Source of the DNA: Phycisphaerae bacterium SM23_33
GTDB lineage: Bacteria > Planctomycetota > Phycisphaerae > SM23-33
DNA length: 34,009 bases
Reading direction: 5' to 3'
Assembly (NCBI GenBank): GCA_001303665.1
Contig: LJUF01000010.1
Span: 1-34,009 of the forward strand
Under the pieces are notes generated by a model, which was not told where the DNA came from, did no database searches, and saw nothing but the letters and a program-made list of their open reading frames with translations. Positions 428 to 29,631 of this stretch are shown in pieces; the stretch's first letter is position 1, and every line of letters begins with the position of its first letter. A program made the position numbers and the translations under genes.

Positions 428-1073
428 GTGGAGAAGAAGCTCGCCAGCAGTGAAACCACAGAGTTATTCGTGCCGACCCCGGCCGTACTCACCGCGGCGC
501 GGATGCTGACGGCCACGGAGCGGCTGCTGACGCTGCGCTGTCAGGACGGCCTGCCCCTCGGGCACGACCCGGGCCAATTCGTGCAGGTCTCCATCTTCGG
601 CCTGGAGGAAGCGCCGATCTCGATCTGCTCGGCCGGCCGGGCGGACGCGACGTTTGAGTTGTGCGTGCGGCGGATGGGCCGGGTCACAGGGGCCCTGCAC
701 GAGCTGAAGCCGGGCCAGGAGGTGGGCGTACGCGGCCCGTTCGGGCACGGCTTTCCGGCCGAAGAGCTCGCCGGCAAGGACCTGGTGCTCGTGGCCGGCG
801 GCATCGGGCTGGCCCCCCTGCGATCGCTGATCCAGCACTGCCTGGCCCATCGCGGGCGGTTCGGCCGGCTGACGCTGCTGCACGGGGCGAAGCAGCCGGC
901 CGAGTTGCTGTTCCGCGAGGAGCTGCCGCAGTGGCGGCGTCCTCAGCCTGGAACGCCACATGCGCTGCGGGGTGGGCAAGTGCGGGCACTGCATGATTGA
1001 CGACCTGTACTGCTGCCGGGACGGGCCGGTGTTCAGGCTGTCGGACCTGGCCAGCGTGAGGGGGGCGTTCTGA
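428..1073 (+). pseudogene. FAD/NAD(P)-binding, [2Fe-2S] oxidoreductase subunit (AsrB / sulfhydrogenase gamma HydG-like) with an internal deletion and frameshift
   Basis: The frame from 428 encodes the FAD-binding barrel (PGQFVQVSIF...RGPFGHGF) and the start of the NAD-binding fold (LVLVAGGIGLAPLRSL...LLFREELPQW). It then degenerates. The C-terminal cluster motif GGVLSLERHMRCGVGKCGHCMIDDLYCCRDGPVF is intact, but in a different frame (about 933-1073), ending in a TGATG overlap with fdhA. Only ~215 codon equivalents are present, versus the ~270-290 aa I recall for this family. Confidence 0.6.
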
Positions 1074-3109
1074 TGGCCGGCGTGCTGACAACGTGCCCGT
1101 ATTGCGGCTGCGGCTGCAACATGGAGCTTCAGGTGGCCGGCGGGCGGGTGGTGGGCACCTCGCCGGTCGGCGGGCATCCCGTGGCGCAGGGCTCGCTGTG
1201 CGTGAAGGGCTGGAACGCCCACGAGTTCGTGCACTCGCCGGATCGGCTCACCGGGCCGCTTCTTCGCCGCGACGGCCGGCTCGCGCCGGTGAGCTGGGAG
1301 GAGGCCATGGACTTCGCCGCCGGCGGGCTCAAGCGGATCGCCGCTGAGCACGGCCCGGACGCCCTGGCCTTCTTCAGCTCGGCCAAGTGCACCAATGAGG
1401 AAAACTTCCTCATGATGAAGCTGGCCCGGGCGGCCTTCCGGACCAACAACGTGGACCACTGCGCCAGGCTGTGCCACGCCTCCAGCGTGGTGGGACTGGC
1501 CGAGACCTTCGGCTCCGGGGCGATGACCAACTCCATCGAGGAGCTGGCCCAGGCCGACTGCATCTTCGTCATCGGCTCCAACACCACCGAGCAACATCCC
1601 CAGGTGGCGGCCCGCATCCTGGAGTCGGTCCGCCGCGGGGGGGCGCTGATTGTGGCCGACCCGCGCTCGATCCGGCTGACGCGCTTCGCCAAGGTTCACC
1701 TGCGCCACCGGCCGGGCTCCGACGTGGCCCTGGTCAACTCCATGATGCACGTCATCCTCGCGGAGAAGCTGGAGAATCGGGAGTTCATCTCGGCCCGCAC
1801 GGAGAATTTCGAGGCGCTGGCGCGGACGGTGCGGGCGTATCCGCCCCGGCGGGGCGAGGCCATCAGCGGCGTGCCGGCTGACTTGATCGCCCAGGCGGCC
1901 CGGACGTACGCCCGGGCCAAAGCCGCCGCCATCGTGTACTCCATGGGCATCACCCAGCACGTCACCGGGGTGGACAACGTCCGCTCGCTGGCCAACCTGG
2001 CGATGCTGACCGGCAACGTCGGCCGGCCCAGCACCGGCGTGAACCCCTTACGCGGACAGAACAACGTCCAGGGGGCCTGCGACGTGGGGGCGCTGGCCAA
2101 CGTCTACAGCGGCTACCAGAGTGTCACCGACCCGGCCGCCCGGCAGAAGTTCGCCCGGGCCTGGGGCACCGATGAGCTGCCCGGCCAGGTGGGCCTGACG
2201 GTGGTGGAGGCCATCAACGCCGCGGCCGACGGCCGCGTCAAGGCCATGTACATCATGGGAGAAAACCCCATGATGTCCGACCCGGACATTCGCAAGGCCG
2301 AAAAGGGCCTGCGGAGCCTGGAGCTGCTGATCGTTCAGGACATCTTTCTGACGGAGACGGCGCGGCTGGCGGACGTGGTGCTGGCGGGGGCGAGCTTCGC
2401 CGAGAAGGACGGCACCTTCACCAACACCGAGCGGCGGGTGCAGCGGGTCCGCAAGGCCATCGAGCCCGTCGGCCAGGCCCGGGCGGACTGGGAGATCCTC
2501 TGCGACTTCGCCCGGCGGGTCGGCTGCGAGCAGATGAGCTACGCCGGCCCGGAGGACGTCTTCAACGAGCTGGCCGAGCTGACGCCCAGCTACCACGGCA
2601 TGAGCTATGCCCGGCTGGAGCCGTGGGGGCTGCTGTGGCCCTGCCCCGAGCCGGGCCACCCCGGCACGCCCTACCTGCACCAGGGCACCTTCGCCCGCGG
2701 CAAGGGCCACTTCTCCCCGGCCGAGCACCGCCCGCCCGATGAGATCCCCGACGAGCACTACGACCTGATCCTGACCACCGGGCGGATCTACTTCCACTGG
2801 CACACCGGCTCCATGACGCGGCGGACCAACCCGCTGAACCGCGAGTCGCCGGAGGCGTTCGTGGAGATCAGCCCGGAGGACGCCGCCGCCCGCGGCATCC
2901 GCCCCGGCGGCCGGGCCCGCGTGTCCACCCGGCGAGGGGCCATCGAGCTGACCGCCCGGGTGACCGAGGACGTGGCCCCCGGGGTGCTGTTCATCCCCTT
3001 CCACTTTCACGAGGCGGCGGCCAACCTGCTGACCAATCCGGCCCTGGACCCGGAGGCCAAGATCCCCGAGTACAAGGCCTGCGCCGCCCGGGTGGAGGCC
3101 TGCCCGTGA
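1073..3109 (+). CDS. fdhA: Formate dehydrogenase catalytic subunit, molybdopterin (bis-MGD) family, cysteine type
   Basis: 678 aa. N-terminal [4Fe-4S] motif CPYCGCGCN. The active-site region NNVDHCARLCHASSV has Cys where Sec-type enzymes have U, and there is no in-frame TGA. Molybdopterin oxidoreductase and C-terminal MopB-binding regions are present (RGIRPGGRARVSTRRG...FIPFHF). Confidence 0.93.
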   Translation: MAGVLTTCPYCGCGCNMELQVAGGRVVGTSPVGGHPVAQGSLCVKGWNAHEFVHSPDRLTGPLLRRDGRLAPVSWEEAMDFAAGGLKRIAAEHGPDALAFFSSAKCTNEENFLMMKLARAAFRTNNVDHCARLCHASSVVGLAETFGSGAMTNSIEELAQADCIFVIGSNTTEQHPQVAARILESVRRGGALIVADPRSIRLTRFAKVHLRHRPGSDVALVNSMMHVILAEKLENREFISARTENFEALARTVRAYPPRRGEAISGVPADLIAQAARTYARAKAAAIVYSMGITQHVTGVDNVRSLANLAMLTGNVGRPSTGVNPLRGQNNVQGACDVGALANVYSGYQSVTDPAARQKFARAWGTDELPGQVGLTVVEAINAAADGRVKAMYIMGENPMMSDPDIRKAEKGLRSLELLIVQDIFLTETARLADVVLAGASFAEKDGTFTNTERRVQRVRKAIEPVGQARADWEILCDFARRVGCEQMSYAGPEDVFNELAELTPSYHGMSYARLEPWGLLWPCPEPGHPGTPYLHQGTFARGKGHFSPAEHRPPDEIPDEHYDLILTTGRIYFHWHTGSMTRRTNPLNRESPEAFVEISPEDAAARGIRPGGRARVSTRRGAIELTARVTEDVAPGVLFIPFHFHEAAANLLTNPALDPEAKIPEYKACAARVEACP

Positions 3110-12781: not shown

Positions 12782-14962
12782 TCAGAGCAGCGGGTCCATC
12801 TTCAGCGCGGGGTGATCCACCTTGGTCAGGTGCTCCAAAAGCTGCTCGGAGGTCGTGGCGATGGTCTCGTCGGCGATCTTATCCACGAGCCCCTCCATGC
12901 CTATCACCTTGGCGCGTTTTTCCAGCCTTTCGCGCATGTATTCCTTCAGCTCCTTCGGCATCCACGTCAGCCGGGGCAGCCCGCCCTCGGCGCTGATGAA
13001 CTTCCGGCTGGCCAGGTACAGCCGGCCGACGCCGACGAACCCGGGCGTCTGGGCCCCGCCGCCGACGCTGCCAGCCAGCGTCGAAAACGGCATGCCGATG
13101 GGCGTGTCCCCGGGGTATTCGCGGTTCACGATCATCACTCCGTTGGCCTCGGGGACGATGGCCAGGATGCACTCGAAGCAGCCGCAGGAGGTCATGGGGT
13201 TCTGCATCAGGCTGTAGGCGCTGAAGCGATCGACGCTACCGTTGGAGTGCTCGTGCACGAACTTGTTGACGTTCTCCCACTCGCCCAGGACCGGATCGAT
13301 GCACTTTCCTTTGGGCACGGGCTGGTTGCAGCCGGTGGGGTTGATCTCGTAGGCGGCCTGGCCGTCCAGCCAGTTGTACGCCCCGCACAGCCCCAGCCGC
13401 TCCGGGGTGATGATGCAGACGTGATTCGGGGCGAAGGACTGGCACAGCGTGCAGGAATAGAAGGTGTCCACCGACTCGTCCGTCATGCCGGCGACGCGCT
13501 CATCGCGGGCAGTCCAGATGGGCTTGGCGTGATCGATCAGGGCGGTAACCTCCTCGGGCTCGGTGGTGACGGTGACGGCCACCTTGTCCACGATGCCGCC
13601 GTACTCGTCGTGCAGCTTGGCATGGAGGATGGTGCCGATGTGCTTGAGACGGAAGCCCGCCTTCACCGCCTCCTTGCTGAAGCGGCACCAGATCTGGTGG
13701 CGCTGGCCGGTGTGCATGAAGCCCATGGCCTCGTTGCAGTACCGGTGGATCTGGCGCTCCAGGATGCCCTCGAAGTCGCTTTTCATCTTCCGTCCGGCGA
13801 CCCTGACGTGGATGGCCAGGTCCACGGCGCCGCCTTCCTCGACCTGGTCGAAGTCCTTGCCTTTGACGGTGACGTCGCCGTCGTTGACCTCGTCGAGTTC
13901 GGCCGATTCCAGCAGCTCCACCGCCCGGGAGTACTTGCCGCCGAACTGCACGTGCATGTCTTCCCGGCGGACGCGCTCGCCCTCAAAGGCCGGGGAGTAG
14001 GAAACCGGGATGTCGATCTCCTCCACCTTCACCTTCACGCCGCGGACCTCGATGCAGGTGGGGACGATCTGATCGGGGTCGGTCTGGCGGACCAGGGCCT
14101 CGTACGTCGTCACGCCGGTGGGGCGGACCTCGGGGGTGGATTCGTGGTCGGAGATAACCGGGAAGCCCATCACGATGGCCCCGGCGCCGACGGCGTACCA
14201 GTCGTCCGGGATGGGACCAAAGGTGATGCCAAAGGCGAAGGTGCGGGCCCGGGTATAGTCCAGACACTTCTTCCACTCGCCCTTCTTGTGGCCGCCGAAG
14301 GTCAGCGCCGCCCGCACCGCCCAGTTGAGCACGTAGATGGCGGACTGGGTGTCGCGCCCGACCGGCACGATGTAGGTGTCCCACCCCAGCTCGACGCCCT
14401 CGGCGATGAGTTGATCCTTCATGCTGGTGCCGTTGCGGCCACACAGCAGGAAGGTCAGGATGCTGCGCTTCTGCAATTCCCGCACGGTGTGCAGGGCGAT
14501 CTCGTTGGCCGGCGCGGGGCCGAGGATGGCGGCGAAGCCCGGCATGCGGCCGTCCACAAGCTGGATGCCCAGCTCGCGCTGGATCGTGTCGGAGATGAAG
14601 CCGGTGCAGCCCTCTTCGACGGGTTCGCCGTTCATGTACCGCAGCGCGCAGGTCGTCTCCAGCGCCAGCAGCGTGGCGATGCCGGCGTCGAGCCCGTCGC
14701 CCAGGTAGGGCAGCCACAATTCCTTGGCCGGTTCGGCCGGCAGCAATTCGCGGCAGCGGGCCAGCACCGGCTTCAGGTCCGCCACTGTCTTGACCTCCAG
14801 ACCCATCAGGGCGTAGACCATCGGCAGATAGAAGGCTGTGTCCGGAAACTCGACCTTCTGGTCTTCGCCCTTGGCCTGGACGGCCTCGGCGAGCTTCGCT
14901 TCAGCCTCCTCGACGAACCCGTGGGCGCCACGGATGGCCGCGGCGATCACCTCTCGCGACAT
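12782..14962 (-). CDS. acsB: Acetyl-CoA synthase (A-cluster subunit of CODH/ACS)
   Basis: 726 aa. A-cluster ligand region SCGCFECI. Bacterial full-length architecture. Confidence 0.95.
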   Translation of the reverse strand: MSREVIAAAIRGAHGFVEEAEAKLAEAVQAKGEDQKVEFPDTAFYLPMVYALMGLEVKTVADLKPVLARCRELLPAEPAKELWLPYLGDGLDAGIATLLALETTCALRYMNGEPVEEGCTGFISDTIQRELGIQLVDGRMPGFAAILGPAPANEIALHTVRELQKRSILTFLLCGRNGTSMKDQLIAEGVELGWDTYIVPVGRDTQSAIYVLNWAVRAALTFGGHKKGEWKKCLDYTRARTFAFGITFGPIPDDWYAVGAGAIVMGFPVISDHESTPEVRPTGVTTYEALVRQTDPDQIVPTCIEVRGVKVKVEEIDIPVSYSPAFEGERVRREDMHVQFGGKYSRAVELLESAELDEVNDGDVTVKGKDFDQVEEGGAVDLAIHVRVAGRKMKSDFEGILERQIHRYCNEAMGFMHTGQRHQIWCRFSKEAVKAGFRLKHIGTILHAKLHDEYGGIVDKVAVTVTTEPEEVTALIDHAKPIWTARDERVAGMTDESVDTFYSCTLCQSFAPNHVCIITPERLGLCGAYNWLDGQAAYEINPTGCNQPVPKGKCIDPVLGEWENVNKFVHEHSNGSVDRFSAYSLMQNPMTSCGCFECILAIVPEANGVMIVNREYPGDTPIGMPFSTLAGSVGGGAQTPGFVGVGRLYLASRKFISAEGGLPRLTWMPKELKEYMRERLEKRAKVIGMEGLVDKIADETIATTSEQLLEHLTKVDHPALKMDPLL

Positions 14963-20139: not shown

Positions 20140-20250
20140 GGCGTGTGCAGAGGCCCTGAGGTTCGGCGCACTCTGGCACGGCTCAAGCACCCCTGCGGCA
20201 CCCAGGCGAGGTGTAATTGTCAAAACGCCCTGAGCGCAAGGAGATTTTGT

Positions 20251-21999
20251 ATGGGCAAGTCCGTTCCGTCCGACATTGAGATTTCCAGGGCCGCCAAGCC
20301 CAAGCCGATCACCCAGGTCGCCAAGGAGGCGGGCATCCGCCCCAAGGAGCTGGAGCCGTACGGCGACGTCAAGGCCAAGGTGAAGCTGAGCATACTGGAC
20401 CGCCTGGCCAAGGCACCTAACGGCAAGTACATCGACGTGACCGCCATCACGCCCACGCCGTTGGGAGAGGGCAAGACCACCACGGCGGTGGGCCTGACCC
20501 AGGCCCTGGGAGTGCTGGGCAAGAAGGTGTTCCTGTGCATCCGCCAGCCCTCGATGGGACCGACCTTCGGCATCAAGGGCGGCGCGGCCGGCGGCGGCTA
20601 TAGCCAAGTCATCCCCATGGAGGAGTTCAACCTCCACCTCACCGGCGACATCCACGCCGTCAGCATCGCCCACAACCTGCTGGCGGCCGCCGTGGACGCC
20701 CGCATCAAGCACGAGGGCCACGCCGACGACGAGGCCTGGGCGAAGACGGGGCTGCCCCGGCTGAACATCGACCCGGACTCCATCACCTGGCGCCGGGTGG
20801 TGGACGTCAACGACGCGGCCCTGCGCTTCATCGAGACCGGCCTGAGCGACAGCTGGCTGGACGGGCCGCGGCGGAAGACCGGCTTCGACATCTCCGTGTC
20901 CTCGGAGATCATGGCCATCCTGGCCCTGGCCGCCGGGCCGGAGGACATGCGCCAGCGGCTGGGGCGGGTCATCATCGGCCTGAACAAAGACGGCGACCCG
21001 GTCACCGCCGAGGACCTGGGCTGCGCCGGGGCGATGATGGTGCTGCTGAAGGACGCCATCAAGCCCAACCTCATGCAGACCCTGGAAGGCCAGCCCGCCT
21101 TCGTCCACGCCGGGCCCTTCGCTAACATCGCCCACGGCAACAGCTCCATCCTGGCCGACAAGATCGCCCTGAAGCTGGCCGACTACGTGGTGACCGAATC
21201 CGGCTTCGGGGCCGACATCGGCATGGAGAAGTTCTTCGACATCAAGTGCCGCACCAGCGGGCTGGTGCCCAACTGCGTGGTGCTGGTGGGCACCATCCGG
21301 GCGCTGAAGATGCACGGCGGCGGGCCCAAGGTCACCCCCGGCAAGCCGCTGGCCGAGGAGTACACCCGCGAAAACCTCCAGCTTCTGGAGAAGGGCCTCT
21401 GCAACCTCACCCGGAACATCGAGATCGCCAAGATGTTCGGCGTGCCGGTGGTGGTGGCCATCAACCAGTTCCCCGCCGACACGCCCGCCGAGGTGGAGCT
21501 GGCCCGCCAGGCCGCCGAGCAGGCCGGCGCCGAGGCCGCCGTCATGTCCAACCACTGGGCCGAGGGCGGCCAGGGCGCCACCGACCTGGCCGAGGCGGTC
21601 GTGGCCGCCTGCGACAAGCCCACCGACTTCAAGCTGCTGTACCCCAACGAGATGTCCATCAAGGACAAGATCGAGCTGATTGCCAAGAAGGTGTACCTGG
21701 CCGGGGCGCTGGAGTACGCCCCGGTGGCCGAAAGACAGGTCGCCGCCTACGAAAAGGCCGGCCTGAGCCACCTGCCCATCTGCATGGCCAAGACGCACCT
21801 GTCCCTGACTCACGACCCCACGCTCAAGGGCGTGCCCCGCGGCTTCACCGTGCCCATCGTGGAGGTGCGGGCCTCGGCCGGGGCCGGCTTCCTGTACCCC
21901 CTGCTGGGCACCATGCGGACCATGCCGGGGCTGCCCAGCCGGCCGGCGTTCCTGAGCGTGGACCTGGACGGCGACGGCCAGGTCGTGGGCATGTTCTGA
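20251..21999 (+). CDS. fhs: Formate--tetrahydrofolate ligase
   Basis: The ATG at 20251 is preceded by AAGGAG. Sequence includes SDIEI..., [11 protein letters not shown] and the FTHFS family signature throughout. 582 aa. Confidence 0.95.
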
Positions 22000-22144
22000 T
22001 GCGGACCAGCGGCGCCCAGGGAAGCAGCGGACACGACTCGTTTTCAGCCCCGGGTCCGATTGGCTAAGATGTAGGTAGGAGGGTTGCCAGCGGATGGCGG
22101 AGGCTCGGTGTCTCTGGCTTGATTCTCGAGGCGGAGAGGCGTTG

Positions 22145-24226
22145 ATGCAGAAGGCGGACTTGACATCAAGGGACATTGCCGAGCTCGGGCGGGTTACCGA
22201 ACTCATGGAGCGCGAGTGGTCCCCCTGCCGATACCATTGCCCCGTCCACGCGGACGTCCGGGGTTACATCGAGGCGGCCGCTCAGGGCCGGTTTGGCGAA
22301 GCCATCGACATCATTCGGGAGAACCTCCCGTTCGCCGCGGTGTGCGGGCGGGTCTGCCACCATCCCTGTGAGACCAACTGCCGCCGCAAGGACGTGGACG
22401 ACCCTGTGGCCATCCGGCACGTGAAGCGGTTCGTGGCCGAATTGCAGGGCGCCGAAGGCTGCACGGTTCACAAGCCGCCGGCCCAGGACAAGGCCCGGGT
22501 CGCGATTGTGGGCGCCGGCCCGGCCGGTCTGTCGGCGGCGCTGCACCTGGCCAAGCTCGGCTACCGCCCCACGGTCCTGGAGAAGTTCCCTATTGCCGGC
22601 GGCATCCCCGCCACCGCCATTCCCCGGTACCGCCTGCCCCTGGAAGTCGTCCAGATCGACGTGGACTGGATCCGCGCCCACGGGGTGGAACTGATCACCG
22701 GCGTCGAGGTCGGCAAGGACAGAAGCATCCAGGACCTGCTGGGCGAAGGGTACGAGGCGGTGCTGGTGGCGGCCGGCTTGGCCGCCAGCCGCACCCTGCC
22801 TCTGCCCGGCTCCGACCACCCGCGCGTGCATCTGGCCCTGGACTTCCTGACGGCCCTGAACTTCGGCGACAGGCCGGACGCCGGGGATGACGTGCTGGTC
22901 ATCGGCGGCGGCAACGTCGCCTGCGACGCAGCCCGCTCCTGCGTGCGGCTGAAGCCGGCCGCCCGCGTCCGCATGATGTGCTTGGAAAATGAAGAAGAGA
23001 TGCCCGCCTGGGAGTGGGAGCGGCGCGAGGCCGAGGAGGAGGGCGTCGGGATCATCTTCCGCCGCGGGCCGGTGAAGGTGATCCTCGAAGGCGACCGAAT
23101 CGTCGGCCTGACCACCCGCGGGGTCACCCGTGTTTTCGATTCGGAGGGGCGCTTCGACCCGCAGTACGACGACACGGACCTGAGCGACCTGCAGTGCGAT
23201 ACCGTCGTCATCGCCATCGGGCAGATGGCCAACATGGGCTTCGCCCGGGGCAGCGGTCTGAAGGCGGGCCCGGGCGGCCGGCTGGAATACGATCCGGCCA
23301 CCCACCAGGGCAGCCTGCCCAACGTCTTCTTCTGCGGGGAGATCGTCACGCCCCCCGGCTCGGTGGTGGAGGCCTGCGCCCACGGCCAGCGGGCGGCCAA
23401 GGCCATCCACATGTACCTGAGCGGCAAGACCATTCAGATTGACGATTCACTGCCGCCGTACATCGACACCATCCAGCCCGAAACCGCCGAGAAGGTGCTG
23501 AAAGTCTGCCGCCAGGCCATCCCCACGGACCCCCCCCAGCGGCGGAGGAAGCTGTTTACTGAGTTCGAGCGCGGCTACGACGAGCCAGCGGTGCTGGCCG
23601 AGGCCCGGCGGTGCATGAACTGCGGCAGCGGGGCCGAGGTCCTCACCGACAAGTGCGCCGCCTGCCTCACCTGCCTGCGCGTCTGCCCCTTCGACATTCC
23701 GGTGGTGACGGACGTGGCCCGGATCCAATCCACCCTGTGCCAGGCCTGCGGCATGTGCATTGCCGAATGCCCGGCCAACGCCATCATCGCCCGCGGCCGG
23801 GACGTCGGGGAGCTGGTCCAGCACACCGCGGCGGCCTTGGCCAAGATGAACGGGCGCGAGCCCAAGGTTATCGCTTACGTCTGCGGCCACCACGCCGGTG
23901 CCGCCGATTGGGGCGGTCGCGTCGAGGGCGTGGAGGGCGTGGCCGAAATCTACCTGCCCAGCACCGCCCGGCTCAGTTCGGCCGAGCTGCTGCACGCCTT
24001 CGAGAACGGCGCGGATGCCGTGATCGTGGTGGCATGTCCGGACGCGGCCGATCGTTATCCGCAAACGGCCGATCGCACCCGGCGGCGGGTCAACCAGGCC
24101 CGCCGGCTGCTCCAGGAAGCGGGCCTGGACGGCCAGGCCCTGCAACTGCTGGAAGTGGCCGACCAGGGCCGGCAGGCCATCCGCGCCGCCCTGGCCGAGG
24201 CGGCCGGAAAGACAAGTGCCTCTTAG
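22145..24226 (+). CDS. Fusion protein: GltD/NfnB-like NAD(P)H-FAD oxidoreductase plus 2x[4Fe-4S] ferredoxin domain plus MvhD(FlpD)-like domain
   Basis: N-terminal Fe-S region CRYHCPVH...CGRVCHHPCETNCRR. Dinucleotide folds VAIVGAGPAGLSAA and VLVIGGGNVACDAA. Ferredoxin motifs CAACLTCLRVCP and CQACGMCIAECP. The C-terminal part (KVIAYVCGHHAGAADWGG...GADAVIVVACPDA...) is FlpD/MvhD-like. The ATG at 22145 is preceded by GGAGAGG. Confidence 0.82.
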   Translation: MQKADLTSRDIAELGRVTELMEREWSPCRYHCPVHADVRGYIEAAAQGRFGEAIDIIRENLPFAAVCGRVCHHPCETNCRRKDVDDPVAIRHVKRFVAELQGAEGCTVHKPPAQDKARVAIVGAGPAGLSAALHLAKLGYRPTVLEKFPIAGGIPATAIPRYRLPLEVVQIDVDWIRAHGVELITGVEVGKDRSIQDLLGEGYEAVLVAAGLAASRTLPLPGSDHPRVHLALDFLTALNFGDRPDAGDDVLVIGGGNVACDAARSCVRLKPAARVRMMCLENEEEMPAWEWERREAEEEGVGIIFRRGPVKVILEGDRIVGLTTRGVTRVFDSEGRFDPQYDDTDLSDLQCDTVVIAIGQMANMGFARGSGLKAGPGGRLEYDPATHQGSLPNVFFCGEIVTPPGSVVEACAHGQRAAKAIHMYLSGKTIQIDDSLPPYIDTIQPETAEKVLKVCRQAIPTDPPQRRRKLFTEFERGYDEPAVLAEARRCMNCGSGAEVLTDKCAACLTCLRVCPFDIPVVTDVARIQSTLCQACGMCIAECPANAIIARGRDVGELVQHTAAALAKMNGREPKVIAYVCGHHAGAADWGGRVEGVEGVAEIYLPSTARLSSAELLHAFENGADAVIVVACPDAADRYPQTADRTRRRVNQARRLLQEAGLDGQALQLLEVADQGRQAIRAALAEAAGKTSAS

Positions 24227-24238
24227 GAGGTTTTTTCG

Positions 24239-24928
24239 ATGATCGTCGCCGAACGAAAGCCATTCGACGAAATCGTGGAGATGGTCGCGCCGTATAAGAA
24301 GGTGCTGGTGCTCGGCTGCGGCAGCTGCGTGACCGTGTGCCTGACCGGCGGGGAGCGACAGGCTGAGATACTCGCCTCGCAGCTCCGCCTGGCCGGGCGG
24401 AAGAAGGGCCTGGACCTGTCCGTGGACTTCGACTGCATCACCCGGCAGTGCGACCGCGAGTTCACCGAGAACCTCAAGTTCGACCCGGCCGAGTACGATG
24501 CCGTGCTGAGCCTGGCCTGCGGCGTGGGGGTGGGTTTCATGAGCGGGGTGCTTCCCGACACGCCCGTGCTTCCGGCCCTGAACACCACGTTTTACGGCGC
24601 GGGCGTGGCCGAAGGCGTCTGGGAGGAATACTGCCACGGCTGCGGGGATTGTGTGCTGGCCTGGACCGGGGGCATCTGCCCCATCGCCCGCTGCTCCAAG
24701 AGCCTCATCAACGGCGCCTGCGGCGGCACCAACGACGGCAAGTGCGAAGTCAGCCAGGACATGGACTGCGGCTGGCACCTGATCTACAAGCGTCTGCAGG
24801 AGCTCGGCCGGCTGGACGAACTCCGCAAGATGCGCCCGCCCAGAGACTGGAGCAAGAATCGCAGCGGCGGCGTCCGCCGCCTCAGCCGCGAGGAAATGGC
24901 CGAGATCGCCCAGGAGTCCGCCGAATGA
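24239..24928 (+). CDS. metV: Methylenetetrahydrofolate reductase small subunit (MTHFR C-terminal-like, Cys-rich)
   Basis: 229 aa. Sequence includes CGSCVTVC and CPIARCSKSLINGACGGTNDGKCEV...C. ATGA overlap with the metF start. Confidence 0.87.
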   Translation: MIVAERKPFDEIVEMVAPYKKVLVLGCGSCVTVCLTGGERQAEILASQLRLAGRKKGLDLSVDFDCITRQCDREFTENLKFDPAEYDAVLSLACGVGVGFMSGVLPDTPVLPALNTTFYGAGVAEGVWEEYCHGCGDCVLAWTGGICPIARCSKSLINGACGGTNDGKCEVSQDMDCGWHLIYKRLQELGRLDELRKMRPPRDWSKNRSGGVRRLSREEMAEIAQESAE

Positions 24929-25836
24929 ACGAGCCCGTCAGCAAATTGCAGGAGATCTTGGACGCCGGCCAGTTCGCCGTCACCGGAGAGATCGGCCCGC
25001 CCAAGGGCACCAACGTCGAGCCAGCCCTGCACGAGGCCCAGCAGTACCTCGAGGGCCGGGTGGCCGCCGTCAACGTCACCGACATTCAGACGGCGGTGAT
25101 GCGGCTGGGGTCGATGGCCGTCTGCCACCTGCTGCTGGACCGCGGCGTCGAGCCGGTCTTCCAGATGGTCTGCCGCGACCGCAATCGCCTGGCCCTGGAA
25201 TCCGACCTGCTTTCCGCCTACACCCTGGGCATCCGCAACGTCCTGGCCCTGACCGGCGACCACGTGGCCATGGGCGACCATCGCGAGGCCAAGTGCGTCT
25301 TCGACCTGGATTCGGTGGGCCTGCTGGAGGCGATGGCCCGCCTGGAGGCCGGCACCGACCTGGGGCGGGATGCGAAAGGCAACCCCAACCAACTCGACGG
25401 GGTGCCCAAGTTCTTCAAGGGCTGCTGCGTCACGCCCTGCGCCGACGAGGTCGAACCGCAGATCATCAAGCTGGAAAAGAAGGCCACCGCCGGCGCCCAG
25501 TTCGTCCAGACCCAGGCGGTGTACGACCCGGCGGCGTTCGAAAAGTTCATGAACCAGATCCAGCACGTCAAGGTCCCGGTGCTGGTGGGGATCGTGCTGC
25601 TGAAGTCGGCCGGCATGGCCAAGTACATGAACCGCTCGGTCCCGGGCGTGCAGGTGCCCGACGCAATCGTCCAGCGGCTGACCGACGCGCCCAAGGAAGA
25701 CCGCGCCAAGGTCAGCGTCGAGATCGCCGCCGAGCTCATCCGTGCGATGAAGCCCATGTGCCAGGGGGCCCACCTGATGACCCTAGGCTGGGATCACTGC
25801 GTGCCCGACATCATTCAGCAAGCGGAACTGGCGTAA
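24925..25836 (+). CDS. metF: Methylenetetrahydrofolate reductase catalytic subunit
   Basis: 303 aa from the ATG at 24925. It has an MTHFR TIM-barrel sequence (VNVTD..., LALTGD..., AGAQFVQTQAVYD). The ORF-track entry 24448.. includes an out-of-gene N-terminal extension. Confidence 0.92.
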   Translation: MNEPVSKLQEILDAGQFAVTGEIGPPKGTNVEPALHEAQQYLEGRVAAVNVTDIQTAVMRLGSMAVCHLLLDRGVEPVFQMVCRDRNRLALESDLLSAYTLGIRNVLALTGDHVAMGDHREAKCVFDLDSVGLLEAMARLEAGTDLGRDAKGNPNQLDGVPKFFKGCCVTPCADEVEPQIIKLEKKATAGAQFVQTQAVYDPAAFEKFMNQIQHVKVPVLVGIVLLKSAGMAKYMNRSVPGVQVPDAIVQRLTDAPKEDRAKVSVEIAAELIRAMKPMCQGAHLMTLGWDHCVPDIIQQAELA

Positions 25837-25847
25837 GGAGACAGACG

Positions 25848-26825
25848 GTGGCAGCCAAGATCATCGACGGTGAGGCGGTAGCCGAGGAAATCAAGAAGAA
25901 GGTGGCCGCGGACGCGGCCGAACTGGCCCAGGCCGGCAGGCCGCCCCACCTGGTGGCGGTGCAAGTCGGGGAAAACCCGGCTTCCAAGATCTACACCAAC
26001 ATGCAGGCCAAGGCCTGCGAATCGGTGGGGATCCAATACGAGCTGCTCAACCTGCCGGAAGATACGACCCAGGAGGCGCTGCTGGCCAAGGTCGGCGAAC
26101 TGAACGCCGACAAGAAGGTAACGGGCCTGATCCTCCAGATGCCCGTTCCCCCCCAGATCGACGCCCGCCAGGTCCAGGTGAGGCTCTCGCCGGCCAAGGA
26201 TGTCGAGGGCATGCACCCTGAAAACATGGGCCGGCTGTTCTACGGCGGCGGCATCGTCGCCCCTTGCACGGCCCTGGCCGCGGTGGAGCTGCTCAAGCGG
26301 GCCTGCCCGAACCTCACCGGCAAAGAGACGGTCATCGTCGGCCACAGCGAGATCGTGGGCAAGCCCGTGGCCATGATCCTGCTGCAGTCGCTGAACGAGT
26401 CCCCCACCGCCACCGTCTGCCACATTGCCACGAAGGACCTGGCCGCCCACACCCGCCGGGCCGAGGTGCTCATCGTCGCCACCGGCGTTTCGCAGGCGCG
26501 GTGGCAGGCCTACAGCCGAAGGAAAAAGGCCGGCGAGAAGCCCCCGCTGCCGGACCTGTCGCCGTTGATCAAGGCCGACATGCTCCGGCAGGGCGCCATC
26601 GTCATTGACGTGGCCATGAACCGCATCCCCAAGGGCTTCGACGACAGCGGCGAGCCCCTGAAAAACGAAAAGGGCAGCACCATCATGCAGACCGTCGGCG
26701 ACGTGGACTTCGCCGCGGCCAAGGAAAAGGTCGCCGCCATCACCCCCGTCCCCGGCGGCGTGGGGCCGGTCACCGTGGCCATGCTGCTGGCCAACACCGT
26801 GGCCTGCGCCGAGGCCCTGGCCTGA
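25848..26825 (+). CDS. folD: Bifunctional methylene-THF dehydrogenase / methenyl-THF cyclohydrolase
   Basis: The GTG at 25848 is preceded by AAGGAG. Sequence includes IIDGEAVA..., LILQMPVP, VIVGHSEIVGKP and TPVPGGVGPVTVAML. At 325 aa it is longer than the ~285 aa I recall as typical, because of two insertions. Confidence 0.92.
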   Translation: MAAKIIDGEAVAEEIKKKVAADAAELAQAGRPPHLVAVQVGENPASKIYTNMQAKACESVGIQYELLNLPEDTTQEALLAKVGELNADKKVTGLILQMPVPPQIDARQVQVRLSPAKDVEGMHPENMGRLFYGGGIVAPCTALAAVELLKRACPNLTGKETVIVGHSEIVGKPVAMILLQSLNESPTATVCHIATKDLAAHTRRAEVLIVATGVSQARWQAYSRRKKAGEKPPLPDLSPLIKADMLRQGAIVIDVAMNRIPKGFDDSGEPLKNEKGSTIMQTVGDVDFAAAKEKVAAITPVPGGVGPVTVAMLLANTVACAEALA

Positions 26826-26949
26826 GAGGCGACCGACGGCGAGGGATCAAGGGTCCAGGCCGCGGCAGCGGCTTGCAAGTCCGTGTCGAATTGCTATGGT
26901 CGGCCTCAGGAAATGACCCGGTCCGGCCAACAGCCCTGAGGGCTTCGCC

Positions 26950-29244
26950 ATGGACATTGCCAGCCAACTCCAGTTCCACCCGCTGTTCGCCACCTTCAGC
27001 CCTGATGCCCTGGCCGAGGTCGTCCGCGCCAGCACCGCCGTTACCTACCAGCCGGGCGACGTCTGCATCCGGCAGGGCGAGGCCGGAGAGGTCTTCGGAG
27101 TCCTGATCTCCGGGAAGCTGGAGGCGGCCCGCGACCTGGGCACCGAGCAGCGCGAACGCCTGGGCACGATTGAACCGGGCGAATGCTTCGGGGAGATGTC
27201 GCTGCTGACCGGCAGCCCGGCCGCGGCCGAGGTGGTGGCGGTGACGGAATCCGAGGCCGTCGTCTTTCTCCAGGAGGCCATCGGCCCCCTCATCGCCCTC
27301 AACCGCAACGCCGTCCAGCTTCTGACTCGGTTGATGGCACGCCGGCTGGCCGGCCCCAGGCCGCAGGCGACGTCGCCGCGCCCGGCCGCGGTCACCTACA
27401 GCCTGGGCGCCAGCGGCCCCATGCGAATCCTGTCCATAAGCTGCCGCCGGGACGATCTGCGGTACAGCTACTTCGACACGACCTCCGAGCAGGCGCTGGC
27501 AACGGGCAGCGCGACCGGCCTGGGCGGCCAGGAGGCGGTTCACACTCACCGCGGCCCCAAGGGCGCACTTCAGGAGCGGGTCGGCCCCCCCACCCACGAG
27601 GCGGCGCTGGCCGCGGCCCTGGACGCGTTGACAGCCGCCGACGGCGGGCTGCTCGGCTCGGCGGCGGAACTGTCGGCCATCGGGCACCGCGTCTGCCACG
27701 GCGGGCTCGGCTTCAACGGCCCGGCGGTGGTGGATGAGCAGGTGCTGGAGGAGATCCGCCGGCTGGCGCCCCTGGCCCCGATGGAAAACCCCTACAATCT
27801 GCTCGGAATCGAGGCCTGCCGGAAGCTCGCCCCGGGCGTCGCCCAGGTGGCTGTCTTCGACACGGCCTTCCACCTGAGGATGCCGGCCGCGGCCTGCCGC
27901 TACGCCCTGCCCCAAGACCTGGCCGGGGAGGTCGAACTCCGCCGGTTCGGCTCCCACGGGATTTCGCACGAAGGTGCGGCCCGGGCCGCCTGCGCTTACC
28001 TCGGCAGGAACTTCGACACGCTGAAAATCATCAGCTGCCACCTCGGCACGGGGGCCTCGCTGACGGCCATCGATCACGGCCGGCCGGTGGACAATACCAT
28101 GGGCTTCACCCCCATGGAGGGGCTGGTCATGGCCACGCGGCCGGGCGACGTGGACCCCGGTCTCCTGCTGTACCTGATCGCCCAGCGCGGCATCCCCGCG
28201 GAGGAGCTGACCCGCCGGCTGTACACCGAGTCGGGCCTGCTGGGGCTGTCGGGCATCTCCGGTGACGTCCTTACCGTGCTCGGGGCCGCCGATGAGGGAA
28301 ATCCCCAGGCCCTGCTGGCCATGCAGGTCTATTGCCACCGGGCGCGGAAATACCTCAGCGCCTACGTGGGGCTGCTGGGCGGCGTGGACGGGATCGTCTT
28401 CACCGGCGGCGTGGGCCAGAACGCCCCCGGCCTGCGGGCCCGCATCTGCCAGGGCCTGGAATGGATGGGCATCGTGCTGGACGAAGGGCGCAACCGCCAA
28501 GCCCGGCCGGGGGCGGGCGAAGTGGCCGAGATCTCCCAGAGCCAGTCGCGGGCCCGCGTGCTGGCCGTCGGCAGCAGCGAGGACCACACCATCGCGATCC
28601 AGGCCGTCCGCGCCGTGACGCAAAGACGCGTCACCGACGTCATCCGCCACCAGCAAAAGCCGATCCCCATCAGTGTTTCCGCTCACCACGTCCATCTCAC
28701 CCAGGAGCACGTCGAGGCACTTTACGGGGCCGGGCGGGAGCTCACCTGGTACGCCGAACTCTCTCAGCCAGGCCAGTTCGCCTGCAACGAGCAGCTCTCC
28801 CTGATCGGACCCAAGGGCCGCATCGACCACGTGCGAGTCCTCGGGCCCGTGCGGCCGGAAACCCAGGTCGAAATCTCCCGCACCGAGGAATTCAAGCTGG
28901 GCATCGACGCCCCCATCCGCATGTCCGGAGACCTGGACGGCACGCCGGGCCTTACCCTGCAAGGCCCACAGGGCCAGGTCCATCTCCAGCGCGGCGTCAT
29001 CTGCGCCATGCGACACATTCACATGTCGCCGGCCGACGCCATGGAGTTCGCCGTCCGCGACCGCGACACCGTCCGCGTCCGCGTCCCCGGCGAGCGCTCG
29101 CTGGTCTTCGGCGACGTGGCCGTCCGGGTCAATCCGGACTACCGCCTGGACATGCACATCGACACCGACGAGGCCAACGCCGCCGAGCTCAGCCCCGGGG
29201 CCGTCGGCTACCTCGACTCCATCCAACAAAGGGCCTCCGCCTGA
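26950..29244 (+). CDS. Triple fusion: CAP/cNMP-binding-type effector domain plus acetate/propionate kinase-family domain plus PduL-type phosphotransacylase
   Basis: 764 aa. Residues ~8-125 form the cNMP-type beta-barrel (GECFGEMSLL). Residues ~158-556 are the kinase family (GHRVCHGG, VAVFDTAFH, RRFGSHGISH, ISCHLGTGASLTAIDHG, IVFTGGVGQN). Residues ~571-748 are PduL (VSAHHVHL, SQPGQFAC, AMRHIHM, HIDTDEANAA). GAGGG lies 9 nt upstream of the ATG. Confidence 0.88.
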   Translation: MDIASQLQFHPLFATFSPDALAEVVRASTAVTYQPGDVCIRQGEAGEVFGVLISGKLEAARDLGTEQRERLGTIEPGECFGEMSLLTGSPAAAEVVAVTESEAVVFLQEAIGPLIALNRNAVQLLTRLMARRLAGPRPQATSPRPAAVTYSLGASGPMRILSISCRRDDLRYSYFDTTSEQALATGSATGLGGQEAVHTHRGPKGALQERVGPPTHEAALAAALDALTAADGGLLGSAAELSAIGHRVCHGGLGFNGPAVVDEQVLEEIRRLAPLAPMENPYNLLGIEACRKLAPGVAQVAVFDTAFHLRMPAAACRYALPQDLAGEVELRRFGSHGISHEGAARAACAYLGRNFDTLKIISCHLGTGASLTAIDHGRPVDNTMGFTPMEGLVMATRPGDVDPGLLLYLIAQRGIPAEELTRRLYTESGLLGLSGISGDVLTVLGAADEGNPQALLAMQVYCHRARKYLSAYVGLLGGVDGIVFTGGVGQNAPGLRARICQGLEWMGIVLDEGRNRQARPGAGEVAEISQSQSRARVLAVGSSEDHTIAIQAVRAVTQRRVTDVIRHQQKPIPISVSAHHVHLTQEHVEALYGAGRELTWYAELSQPGQFACNEQLSLIGPKGRIDHVRVLGPVRPETQVEISRTEEFKLGIDAPIRMSGDLDGTPGLTLQGPQGQVHLQRGVICAMRHIHMSPADAMEFAVRDRDTVRVRVPGERSLVFGDVAVRVNPDYRLDMHIDTDEANAAELSPGAVGYLDSIQQRASA

Positions 29245-29265
29245 ATCGCCGCAGGCCAACATCCG

Positions 29266-29290
29266 CCCCCCGCCCAACCCCTGCGGGGGG
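29266..29290 (+). terminator. Weak candidate terminator hairpin after the fusion gene
   Basis: CCCCCCGC-N9-GCGGGGGG forms an 8-bp GC stem 22 nt after the stop codon. There is no adjacent U-tract; the nearest TTTT is ~15 nt downstream. Confidence 0.25.
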
Positions 29291-29631
29291 TATCCGCTGA
29301 ACCCATTTTGACGGGATTCGAACGTCTCCTGGGGGCAGAGTCCCGGCCGGGGGCGCAAGCCGTAAGACCTTTTCAGCAAAAGGCGTGACGCACTCAAGCG
29401 AGCCCTTTCAGCCGACGCCATCCCCCCGCCGCCGAGCGAAAAAGTCGTTCACTCGTCTCATTTCAGGCTCTTTTTTGCCCTCCAGCCCAGGGCCCCAAGG
29501 ACTTGCGCCGCCTCACTTGGCTCAGAACGCGGTCTCAAACCCCCCAGACTGCCACCTGTCGATACCTGACGGCTCTCTCAGGTCTTTACCGTAGAGGGGT
29601 ACCCAGTCCAGCAGCCCGCCGGCCCACGGCC

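Follow-up and report, generated by a model that had tools for sequence, protein, structure and literature searches.

Results

A three-domain fusion with a replaced phosphate loop

The window analyzed here, a stretch of 34,009 nucleotides from the planctomycete Phycisphaerae bacterium SM23_33 (assembly GCA_001303665.1, contig LJUF01000010.1, positions 1 to 34,009), carries an unbroken open reading frame (ORF) of 764 codons (26950-29244) that encodes a cyclic-nucleotide (cNMP)-binding-like domain, an acetate-kinase-like domain, hereafter Ack*, and a PduL phosphotransacylase fused in a single chain (Table 1). In Ack*, the residues through which acetate kinases (AckA) contact ATP are replaced and those of the acetate/acetyl-phosphate side are kept, a state found again in 110 homologues. 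That Ack* is a conserved pseudokinase, which has no ATP-dependent kinase activity, retains a pocket for acyl-phosphate/acetate and serves to regulate or scaffold PduL, is a reading for which we hold the chances to be evenly divided.

The N-terminal domain matches the cyclic-nucleotide-binding profile PF00027 with 61.8 bits (Pfam cut-off 27.5). Ack* belongs to the acetate/propionate kinase family both by profile, with 355 bits for the Pfam Acetate_kinase model PF00871 (cut-off 22, match over residues 160-549) and 349 bits for TIGR00016 (cut-off 293), and by fold. None of the NCBIfam equivalog models matched the window protein at its own cut-off. Homologous fusions are publicly annotated as "acetate/propionate family kinase." An AlphaFold2 model built with 91 homologues reached a mean pLDDT of 87.8 and a pTM of 0.82 over the whole chain, with disorder only in the linker 134-146. 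Compared by Foldseek, its Ack* part superimposes on the Methanosarcina thermophila AckA (1g99/1tuy) with a TM score of 0.95, an rmsd of 1.8 A and 38% identity, and its PduL part on Rhodopseudomonas palustris PduL (5cuo) with a TM score of 0.95, so that the Ack* fold is predicted to be unchanged despite the altered site.

The register of the motifs was examined with phmmer against all PDB chains, taking Thermotoga maritima AckA (2iir) and M. thermophila AckA (1tuu/1g99) as references; residue numbers such as N7, H123 or E384 are those of the M. thermophila enzyme. The alignment starts at the first residue of the domain, runs without a gap through PHOSPHATE1 and stays colinear to the end. A sequence-only reading of this DNA, which had first reported the unusual motifs, had named a shifted register as what could overturn it; because the alignment to three solved AckAs is gap-free across the motifs, a mis-registration is ruled out. 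PHOSPHATE1 (27427-27465) thus reads ILSISCRRDDLRY in place of the canonical VLVINAGSSSLKY, with the changes N7S, A8C, G9R, S10R, S11D, S12D and K14R, which bears out the replacement of Asn by Ser and of GSSS by RRDD that had been described. The His to Glu change in PMENP (canonical PLHNP) and the integrity of GHRVCHGG, FDTAFH, RRFGSHGISH and HLGTGAS were likewise read correctly, and the change of GIGEN to GVGQN (28408-28422; I332V, E334Q) is present. Furthermore, the alignment reveals substitutions absent from that reading, namely N211T, G239A, R285L, F179S, V93C and T182I.

These changes can be set against the roles assigned to the residues in characterized enzymes. N7, S10, S11, S12 and K14 are hallmark residues important for activity, N211 contacts the beta-phosphate, G239 is the H-bond partner of N211, and R285 stacks on the adenine; single changes at N211 or G239 lower activity 6- to 200-fold, and those at R285 lower kcat about 7- to 9-fold (PMC4390882). 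Ack* has none of the PHOSPHATE1 hallmarks (N7, Gly9, S10, S11, S12, K14), and presents T367, A395 and L441 at N211, G239 and R285. On the other hand, the ADENOSINE residues G331, I/V332 and N335 are present as G487, V488 and N491, and the acetate/acetyl-phosphate and metal residues R91, D148, H180, R241 and E384 as R247, D304, H336, R397 and E544. Compared with M. thermophila AckA, Ack* therefore shares the fold, this second set of residues and the ADENOSINE G331/N335, and differs by the replacement of N7, G9, S10-S12 and K14, by the Glu at H123, by the loss of N211, G239 and R285 and by changes at V93, L122 and F179 of the acetate pocket. The Glu credited with divalent-metal binding is E384 (PMC6461089), kept here as E544, and not the Glu of GIGEN, to which the sequence-only reading had given a Mg-binding role. 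Its suggestion of an altered metal chemistry has no basis at this position, because E334 is not a metal ligand and canonical enzymes often have Gln there (45 of 87 canonical fusions), E384 itself being kept in 109 of 110 variants.

The DNA of the motifs is identical in contigs of four public sequencing runs, each belonging to a different study of marine sediment, seawater or marsh; with zero differences among them, neither a sequencing nor an assembly error can account for the substitutions. As a side observation, DNA nearly identical to positions 26000-29300 of the window occurs in metagenomes from marine sediment (2017), seawater/sediment (2021) and several marshes (2025), which argues that the organism is widespread in anoxic coastal sediments.

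Table 1. Position of the fusion gene, of its domains and kinase motifs, and of neighbouring genes in the window (Mt, M. thermophila AckA numbering)
Feature	Positions	Strand	Basis or remark
Whole gene: cNMP-binding + Ack* + PduL fusion, 764 aa	26950..29244	+	ORF list, translation, Pfam/NCBIfam domains
cNMP-binding-like domain, residues 31-114	27040..27291	+	PF00027 61.8 bits, Foldseek match 4orf
Acetate-kinase-like domain Ack*, residues 158-556	27421..28617	+	PF00871, TIGR00016, Foldseek
PHOSPHATE1 core S164-C-R-R-D-D-L-R171 (Mt N7-A-G-S-S-S-L-K14)	27439..27462	+	Alignment to 1tuu
GHRVCHGG: R247 (Mt R91) kept, C249 at Mt V93	27682..27705	+	Alignment
PMENP for PLHNP: M278 (Mt L122), E279 (Mt H123)	27778..27792	+	L122M, H123E
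FDTAFH: D304 (Mt D148) kept	27856..27873	+	D in 110/110 variants
RRFGSHGISH: S335 (Mt F179), H336 (Mt H180, kept), I338 (Mt T182)	27940..27969	+	Alignment
PHOSPHATE2 HLGTGAS: T367 at Mt N211, beta-phosphate contact	28039..28059	+	Varies freely in the clade
LOOP3 VMATRPGD: A395 at Mt G239; R397 (Mt R241) kept	28126..28149	+	Alignment
LOOP4 SGDVLTV: L441 at Mt R285, adenine-stacking Arg lost	28258..28278	+	Alignment
ADENOSINE FTGGVGQNAP: G487 (Mt G331), V488 (Mt I332), N491 (Mt N335) kept; Q490 (Mt E334)	28399..28428	+	
SSEDH: E544 (Mt E384, proposed metal-binding Glu) kept	28573..28587	+	E in 109/110 variants
PduL phosphotransacylase (PTAC), residues 573-747	28666..29190	+	PF06130 258 bits, alignment to 5cuo
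fhs	20143-21999	+	Pfam, ORFs
Flavin/FeS-MvhD protein	22094-24226	+	Pfam, ORFs
metV	24239-24928	+	Pfam, ORFs
metF	about 24925-25836	+	Pfam, ORFs
folD	about 25848-26825	+	Pfam, ORFs
acsB	12782-14962	-	Upstream of the fusion gene
Formate-dehydrogenase-like molybdoenzyme	1073-3109		

The substitutions define a conserved clade

More than 120 cluster representatives that share this three-domain architecture were retrieved by a word-indexed search. The alignment, to which additional relatives drawn from genomes also contributed, comprised 110 variants (57-76% identity to the window protein), 87 canonical fusions and 13 standalone AckAs taken from the variant-carrying genomes, the last two groups forming together the canonical set (n=100). 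PHOSPHATE1 separates the two kinds of sequences almost completely: N7 is Ser in 103 variants and Asn in none (Asn in 100/100 canonical sequences), G9 is Arg in 105 and Asn in 5 (Gly in 100/100), S12 is Asp in 98 (Ser in 100/100) and K14 is Arg in all 110, never Lys (Lys in 99/100), S10 and S11 being free to vary (Ser in 100/100 for both). H123, a His in every canonical sequence (100/100), is an Asp in 61 variants and a Glu in 49. The other ATP contacts are relaxed, with at least seven different residues standing at N211, among them Thr (28), Ser (20), Ala (14), Met (13) and Arg (9) (Asn in 92/100), G239 replaced mostly by Ala (84) or Ser (20) (Gly in 98/100), and R285 mostly by Leu (79) or Val (10), an Arg subsisting in 8 variants (Arg in 98/100). 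Position 179 is Phe in 50 variants, Ser in 31 and Gly in 18, and T182 is Ile in 103. The shared variant motif is therefore S-C-R-x-x-D-x-R combined with an acidic residue at H123 and relaxed ATP contacts; the RRDD loop is conserved at R9 and D12 and not at positions 10 and 11. The sequence-only reading had also considered that its unusual positions might simply be variable in functional enzymes, which holds for E334 but not for PHOSPHATE1 or H123 (99-100/100 in canonical sequences).

The acetate side shows the opposite picture. D148, H180 and R241 occur in 110/110 variants and E384 in 109/110, all being kept in the canonical sequences, as is G331 (109/110 variants); position 332 is Val (101) or Ile (7) in 108/110, and N335 is found in 104/110 variants and in 13/13 standalone AckAs, the canonical fusions having Gly in 41 and Asn in 32 of 87. 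Because the ATP contacts are replaced or relaxed and these residues are kept, the loss is, on the evidence of the alignment, specific to the ATP side of the site. Recurrence of the same replacements in 110 homologues is likewise far beyond chance, and the substitutions can be described as a selected state with a single origin.

Several positions of the site change together. R93 is present in 32/34 variants without R91 and in 0/76 with R91; L122R is found in 4 of the 5 R9N variants and never otherwise; and F179 goes with D123 in 50/50 cases, Ser or Gly at position 179 accompanying E123 in 45/49. These three compensating covariations point to an Ack* site still under precise selection, and the latter two fit a putative carboxylate and arginine at the old acetate/gamma-phosphate position. 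A scan of all 764 residues for clade-specific fixation or relaxation yielded 17 positions, of which 9 correspond to PHOSPHATE1, L122, F179 and N211 and none lies in PduL. Within the variant clade, the Ack* domains share a mean pairwise identity of 0.63, compared with 0.64 for the cNMP-like domain and 0.78 for PduL; as the Ack*/PduL ratio is similar to that of canonical fusions (0.59/0.70), Ack* is under purifying selection and not decaying. It has thus lost residues required for the ancestral reaction and is under purifying selection, as would be expected of a pseudoenzyme, a catalytically inactive homologue that selection retains. Gene decay is ruled out by the 764-codon frame, the 110 homologues with the same motif and their strong conservation, in agreement with the initial view that the gene was intact.

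The variants are monophyletic in a maximum-likelihood tree built from the kinase domain, where they sit on a long stem of 0.39 substitutions per site and have canonical three-domain fusions as their sister group (parent-node support 1.0). These sister fusions, 51-56% identical, have the same architecture, length and PduL catalytic residues and, unlike the variants, have all the kinase hallmarks. An HMMER search of a library clustered at 50% identity showed the variant clade as two representatives, below which the score drops from 530 to 397 bits, and no standalone version of the variant was found among the best 150 matches. The matches listed from a scan of genome contigs were all distant relatives at 41-55% identity (one partial match at 62%), and nearly all of them were canonical. 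A phylum-wide genome sample contained no variant except that of the window's own genome, and the clade surfaced only on sampling of the class.

Degenerate kinase domains in related fusions

The kinase motifs were lost independently in other cNMP-Ack-PduL fusions, some of them without D148, H180 or E384, and in most of these degenerate fusions the PduL metal motif RH(I/V)H is intact. This independent degradation in other lineages argues for a non-kinase role of the kinase domain in this architecture. Degenerate domains that differ from one another were seen in the cNMP-Ack-PduL or Ack-PduL fusions P0129, P0131, P0132, P0140, P0154, P0160, P0248, L025 and L043, some lacking R241.

Four sequences (L036, L038, L039, L042) from metagenome-assembled genomes (MAGs) labelled Rhodocyclaceae or Gammaproteobacteria represent an independent variant of the three-domain fusion. 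Their phosphate loop reads LN(A/I/V)G(R/L/V)(C/S)Q(I/V)(R/H)F, R241 lies within SRxGSxDP, and G331 is changed to Arg, Gln, Asp or Glu, which recalls the Entamoeba/Anaerolineae-type change; in the genomes concerned, PF00871 matches no more than one further protein, and with a lower score (367-376 bits). A third, divergent and standalone Ack-like paralogue (305-318 bits) was observed in three genomes of the family to which the window's genome belongs (L138, L139 and L140, in G423, G493 and G613). Its loop is NIGSTSFKF, AFK(T/A)(I/V)M(G/A)G stands for GHRVVHGG (R91 to Lys), FE(T/P)GFH has Glu at D148, and the second signature reads HLGGSSS. No such paralogue turned up in the window's genome (76% complete).

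The flanking domains

The residues of the PduL domain that match the Zn ligands H48, H50, E109, H157, H159 and H204, as well as those that match S45, R97, R103, Q107, S127 and N211 at the phosphate/CoA site, are all present and invariant in an alignment of 91 sequences (A1); they are S577, H580, H582, R629, R635, Q639, E641, S659, H689, H691, H736 and N743 (roles after PMC4784909). Judged from these residues, the PduL domain is predicted to be catalytically intact.

The case of the N-terminal domain is different. At 27181-27237 (residues 78-96), FGEMS is kept and the Arg of the phosphate-binding cassette is absent, the segment G-S-P-A-A-A standing there; the window protein reads FGEMSLLTGSPAAAEV, which departs from the pattern FGE...P-R-[ST]-A. 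In the cassette, this Arg binds the cyclic phosphate. Variant and canonical fusions alike have Thr, Ser or Ala at the expected position, the variant consensus being N-P-T/S-x-A. Because the cassette Arg is absent, the ligand of the cNMP-like domain may differ from cAMP or cGMP. Mycobacterial Pat (4ORF), a cAMP-regulated protein acetyltransferase, likewise joins an N-terminal cNMP-binding domain to an enzyme acting in acetyl-CoA/acetate metabolism, and the NCBIfam model NF058543 gives a weak match; the catalytic partner of Pat is a GNAT, and the window protein differs from it in this partner and in lacking the cassette Arg.

Genomic context and co-occurrence

The fusion gene ends a co-directional run of Wood-Ljungdahl methyl-branch genes (fhs, flavin/FeS-MvhD, metV, metF, folD; 20143..26825, +). 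In 5 of the 7 contigs examined (that of the window and 4 of 6 others), the variant adjoins genes of this branch or of carbon monoxide dehydrogenase/acetyl-CoA synthase (CODH/ACS), and in the one contig of the canonical sister clade that was examined the fusion lies among glycoside hydrolase genes and not Wood-Ljungdahl genes.

Sampling of 400 genomes of the same class added 12 carriers of the variant, hence 13 with the window's genome. AcsB is encoded in 12/13 carriers versus 54/401 genomes of the class (Fisher p=1.3e-10). The exception is G423 (L110), a 97% complete genome without AcsB or Pta match and with a canonical AckA. A canonical standalone AckA with every hallmark is present in 13/13 carriers (462-517 bits); in the window's genome it lies on another contig (484 bits) and is accompanied by Pta. 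By comparison, a second high-scoring acetate kinase is found in 7/29 genomes with a canonical fusion (Fisher p=3e-6 versus carriers), and in most of the other 22/29 the fusion is the sole PF00871 match. With a second AckA in only 7/29 genomes, the fused kinase, where canonical, is usually the acetate kinase of the cell.

As a side observation on the neighbourhood, positions 1073-26825 of the window hold a near-complete set of Wood-Ljungdahl genes, including one for a CooC-like ATPase.

Discussion

From kinase to putative regulatory module

The sequence-only reading had proposed either an altered phosphoryl donor or acceptor or a kinase-dead scaffold presenting PduL. Both proposals are still live, and the genomic evidence favours the second because a canonical AckA is always present in trans. 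The course of events that we propose starts from an ancestral cNMP-Ack-PduL fusion, which would have been a sensor-regulated bifunctional enzyme with a working acetate kinase. In one uncultured lineage of Planctomycetota endowed with a separate canonical AckA, the kinase half of the fusion would have become redundant; the residues for the phosphates and adenine of ATP (N7/G9/S10-12/K14, N211, G239, R285) would then have been replaced and a new charged set fixed (Arg 9, Asp 12, Arg 14, Asp/Glu 123), with retention of the acetate/acetyl-phosphate half (R91 or R93, D148, H180, R241, E384). Ack* would no longer pass phosphate to ADP, and the standalone AckA would make ATP. Ack* might use the retained R91/R241/H180 pocket to sense acetyl-phosphate or acetate; alternatively, its own new carboxylates might fill the site, the domain then serving to transmit signals and to hold the dimer for PduL. 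In either case it would act alongside the N-terminal cNMP-like sensor, the PduL domain would interconvert acetyl-CoA plus inorganic phosphate (Pi) and acetyl-phosphate plus CoA, and the whole protein would be a ligand-regulated phosphotransacetylase of the Wood-Ljungdahl pathway. In this scheme, we infer both the loss of ATP-dependent activity and the sensor or scaffold role.

Several points weigh against this pseudokinase interpretation. The contacts R9-D/E123 and D12-Arg are proposed from covariation only, and the term "kinase-dead" draws on the mutational literature of another enzyme, in which residues were changed singly. D148, H180, R241, E384, G331 and N335, kept in 104-110 of the 110 variants, are not obviously needed by a pure scaffold, and the retention of the acyl-phosphate-side residues would fit continued catalysis as well as ligand sensing. 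Furthermore, the window's genome is 76% complete, and the co-occurrence counts are based on MAGs and on two control sets that were sampled differently.

The foremost alternative, tentative and in our view rather unlikely, is that Ack* is still an enzyme which transfers the phosphoryl group of the acetyl-phosphate made by PduL either to water or to a non-nucleotide acceptor, which might be Pi (giving pyrophosphate, PPi), polyphosphate or some other anion, with Arg9/Arg14 and Asp12/Asp-Glu123 building an acceptor and metal site. The strict conservation of R91/93, D148, H180, R241 and E384 speaks for it, as do the Arg91/93 swap, indicative of selection for a working Arg, the confinement of the divergence to the acceptor half of the site, and the nature of the new residues, which are fixed rather than random and two of them cationic. 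There is also a precedent, since the Entamoeba acetate kinase (ACK) uses Pi/PPi (PMC5517563). However, a newly built substrate site would not be expected to leave positions 10, 11 and 211 free to vary, as they are here, and in other fusion lineages the domain has degraded further, to clear pseudoenzymes. The Entamoeba histolytica PPi-forming enzyme (EhACK, 4H0O) is a family member that does not use ATP. Its signature consists of one additional Gly in PHOSPHATE2 and of an Asp and Gln/Asp-Met replacing G331-I332 in ADENOSINE (PMC5517563), the changes in the solved enzyme being G331Q and I332M plus the Asp. PHOSPHATE1 belongs to the hallmark residues described as conserved across ACKs, and EhACK shares with the window protein a Thr at N211. 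Ack* is the reverse, with ADENOSINE kept, PHOSPHATE2 of normal length and PHOSPHATE1 replaced. An Entamoeba-type PPi kinase (EC 2.7.2.12) was thus rejected, HLGTGAS having no extra Gly and GGVGQN keeping G331 and V332 without the Asp or Gln-Met of ADENOSINE; use of a non-nucleotide acceptor by Ack* would therefore have to be a different solution. Moreover, the hallmark residues, including those of PHOSPHATE1, are highly conserved in prokaryotic and eukaryotic ACKs (PMC4390882), and their loss is not the known route to PPi. A more specific version, in which the rebuilt half-site binds Pi or polyphosphate and the fusion turns acetyl-CoA of the Wood-Ljungdahl pathway into acetate and PPi or polyphosphate, bypassing ADP, appears more doubtful again.

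It is less probable still that Ack* is a pseudoenzyme partner of the standalone AckA, forming a heterodimer with it or docking to it so that acetyl-phosphate is channelled from PduL under the control of the cNMP-like domain. The canonical AckA in 13/13 carrier genomes, the full preservation of the AckA fold, a homodimer in solved structures, and the purifying selection on Ack* would all be expected. Against this, ackA is unlinked, on another contig, and docking alone leaves the retained residues of the acyl-phosphate site unexplained.

That Ack* is an ordinary ATP-dependent acetate/propionate kinase with an unusual phosphate loop, and the fusion a normal bifunctional Pta-Ack, seems to us slightly less credible yet. 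The TIGR00016 score above cut-off, the ADENOSINE residues G331/V332/N335 and the presence of all acetate-side catalytic residues agree with it. However, at least 10 ATP-side positions, one of them the invariant Gly9 in the phosphate loop of ASKHA proteins, have changed jointly, among residues kept in 92-100/100 canonical sequences and of which N211, G239 and R285 individually cost the activity losses cited above; and every genome that carries the variant also encodes a canonical AckA. Lastly, an artefact or a gene caught in mid-decay has a negligible probability, being refuted by the identical DNA in four runs, the unbroken frame and the 110 conserved homologues.

Relation to known systems and significance

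Should the pseudokinase interpretation hold, the fusion would offer a functional analogy to class II Pta. In the class II Pta of Escherichia coli and Salmonella, the N-terminal AAA_26/DRTGG region is regulatory and non-catalytic and descends from an NTP-binding fold. In both proteins a phosphotransacetylase would be under the allosteric control of a fused domain that used to be an enzyme. The folds are unrelated, on the catalytic side (Pta versus PduL) as well as on the regulatory side (DTBS-like NTPase versus ASKHA). Separately, we note in L145 (8530-9630) a free-standing 366-aa AAA_26 + DRTGG protein encoded between acsE and the variant fusion.

The occurrence of PduL within "multidomain proteins annotated as Acks" was mentioned in one sentence by Erbilgin et al. 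(2016; PMC4784909), who regarded them as probable channelling enzymes. In the literature searched, we found no description of this conserved variant or of the regulation of this three-domain architecture.

The annotation of these fusions as kinases has a practical consequence, as metabolic reconstructions of sediment Planctomycetota would assign to them the ATP-yielding step of acetogenesis, for which the evidence points to a different gene. Beyond this, the clade offers a natural experiment on the ASKHA phosphate loop, with more than 100 sequences carrying compensating substitutions, and a likely case in which an enzyme has become a regulatory module for the neighbouring enzyme of its pathway. 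The protein is also a candidate control point, combining a cNMP-like sensor and an acyl-phosphate pocket, at the place where acetyl-CoA of the Wood-Ljungdahl pathway enters energy conservation. If Ack* instead proved to have acquired a new chemistry, it would be a new nucleotide-independent acetate kinase, and energy-limited sediment bacteria would harbor a second, independently evolved and structurally different nucleotide-independent route.

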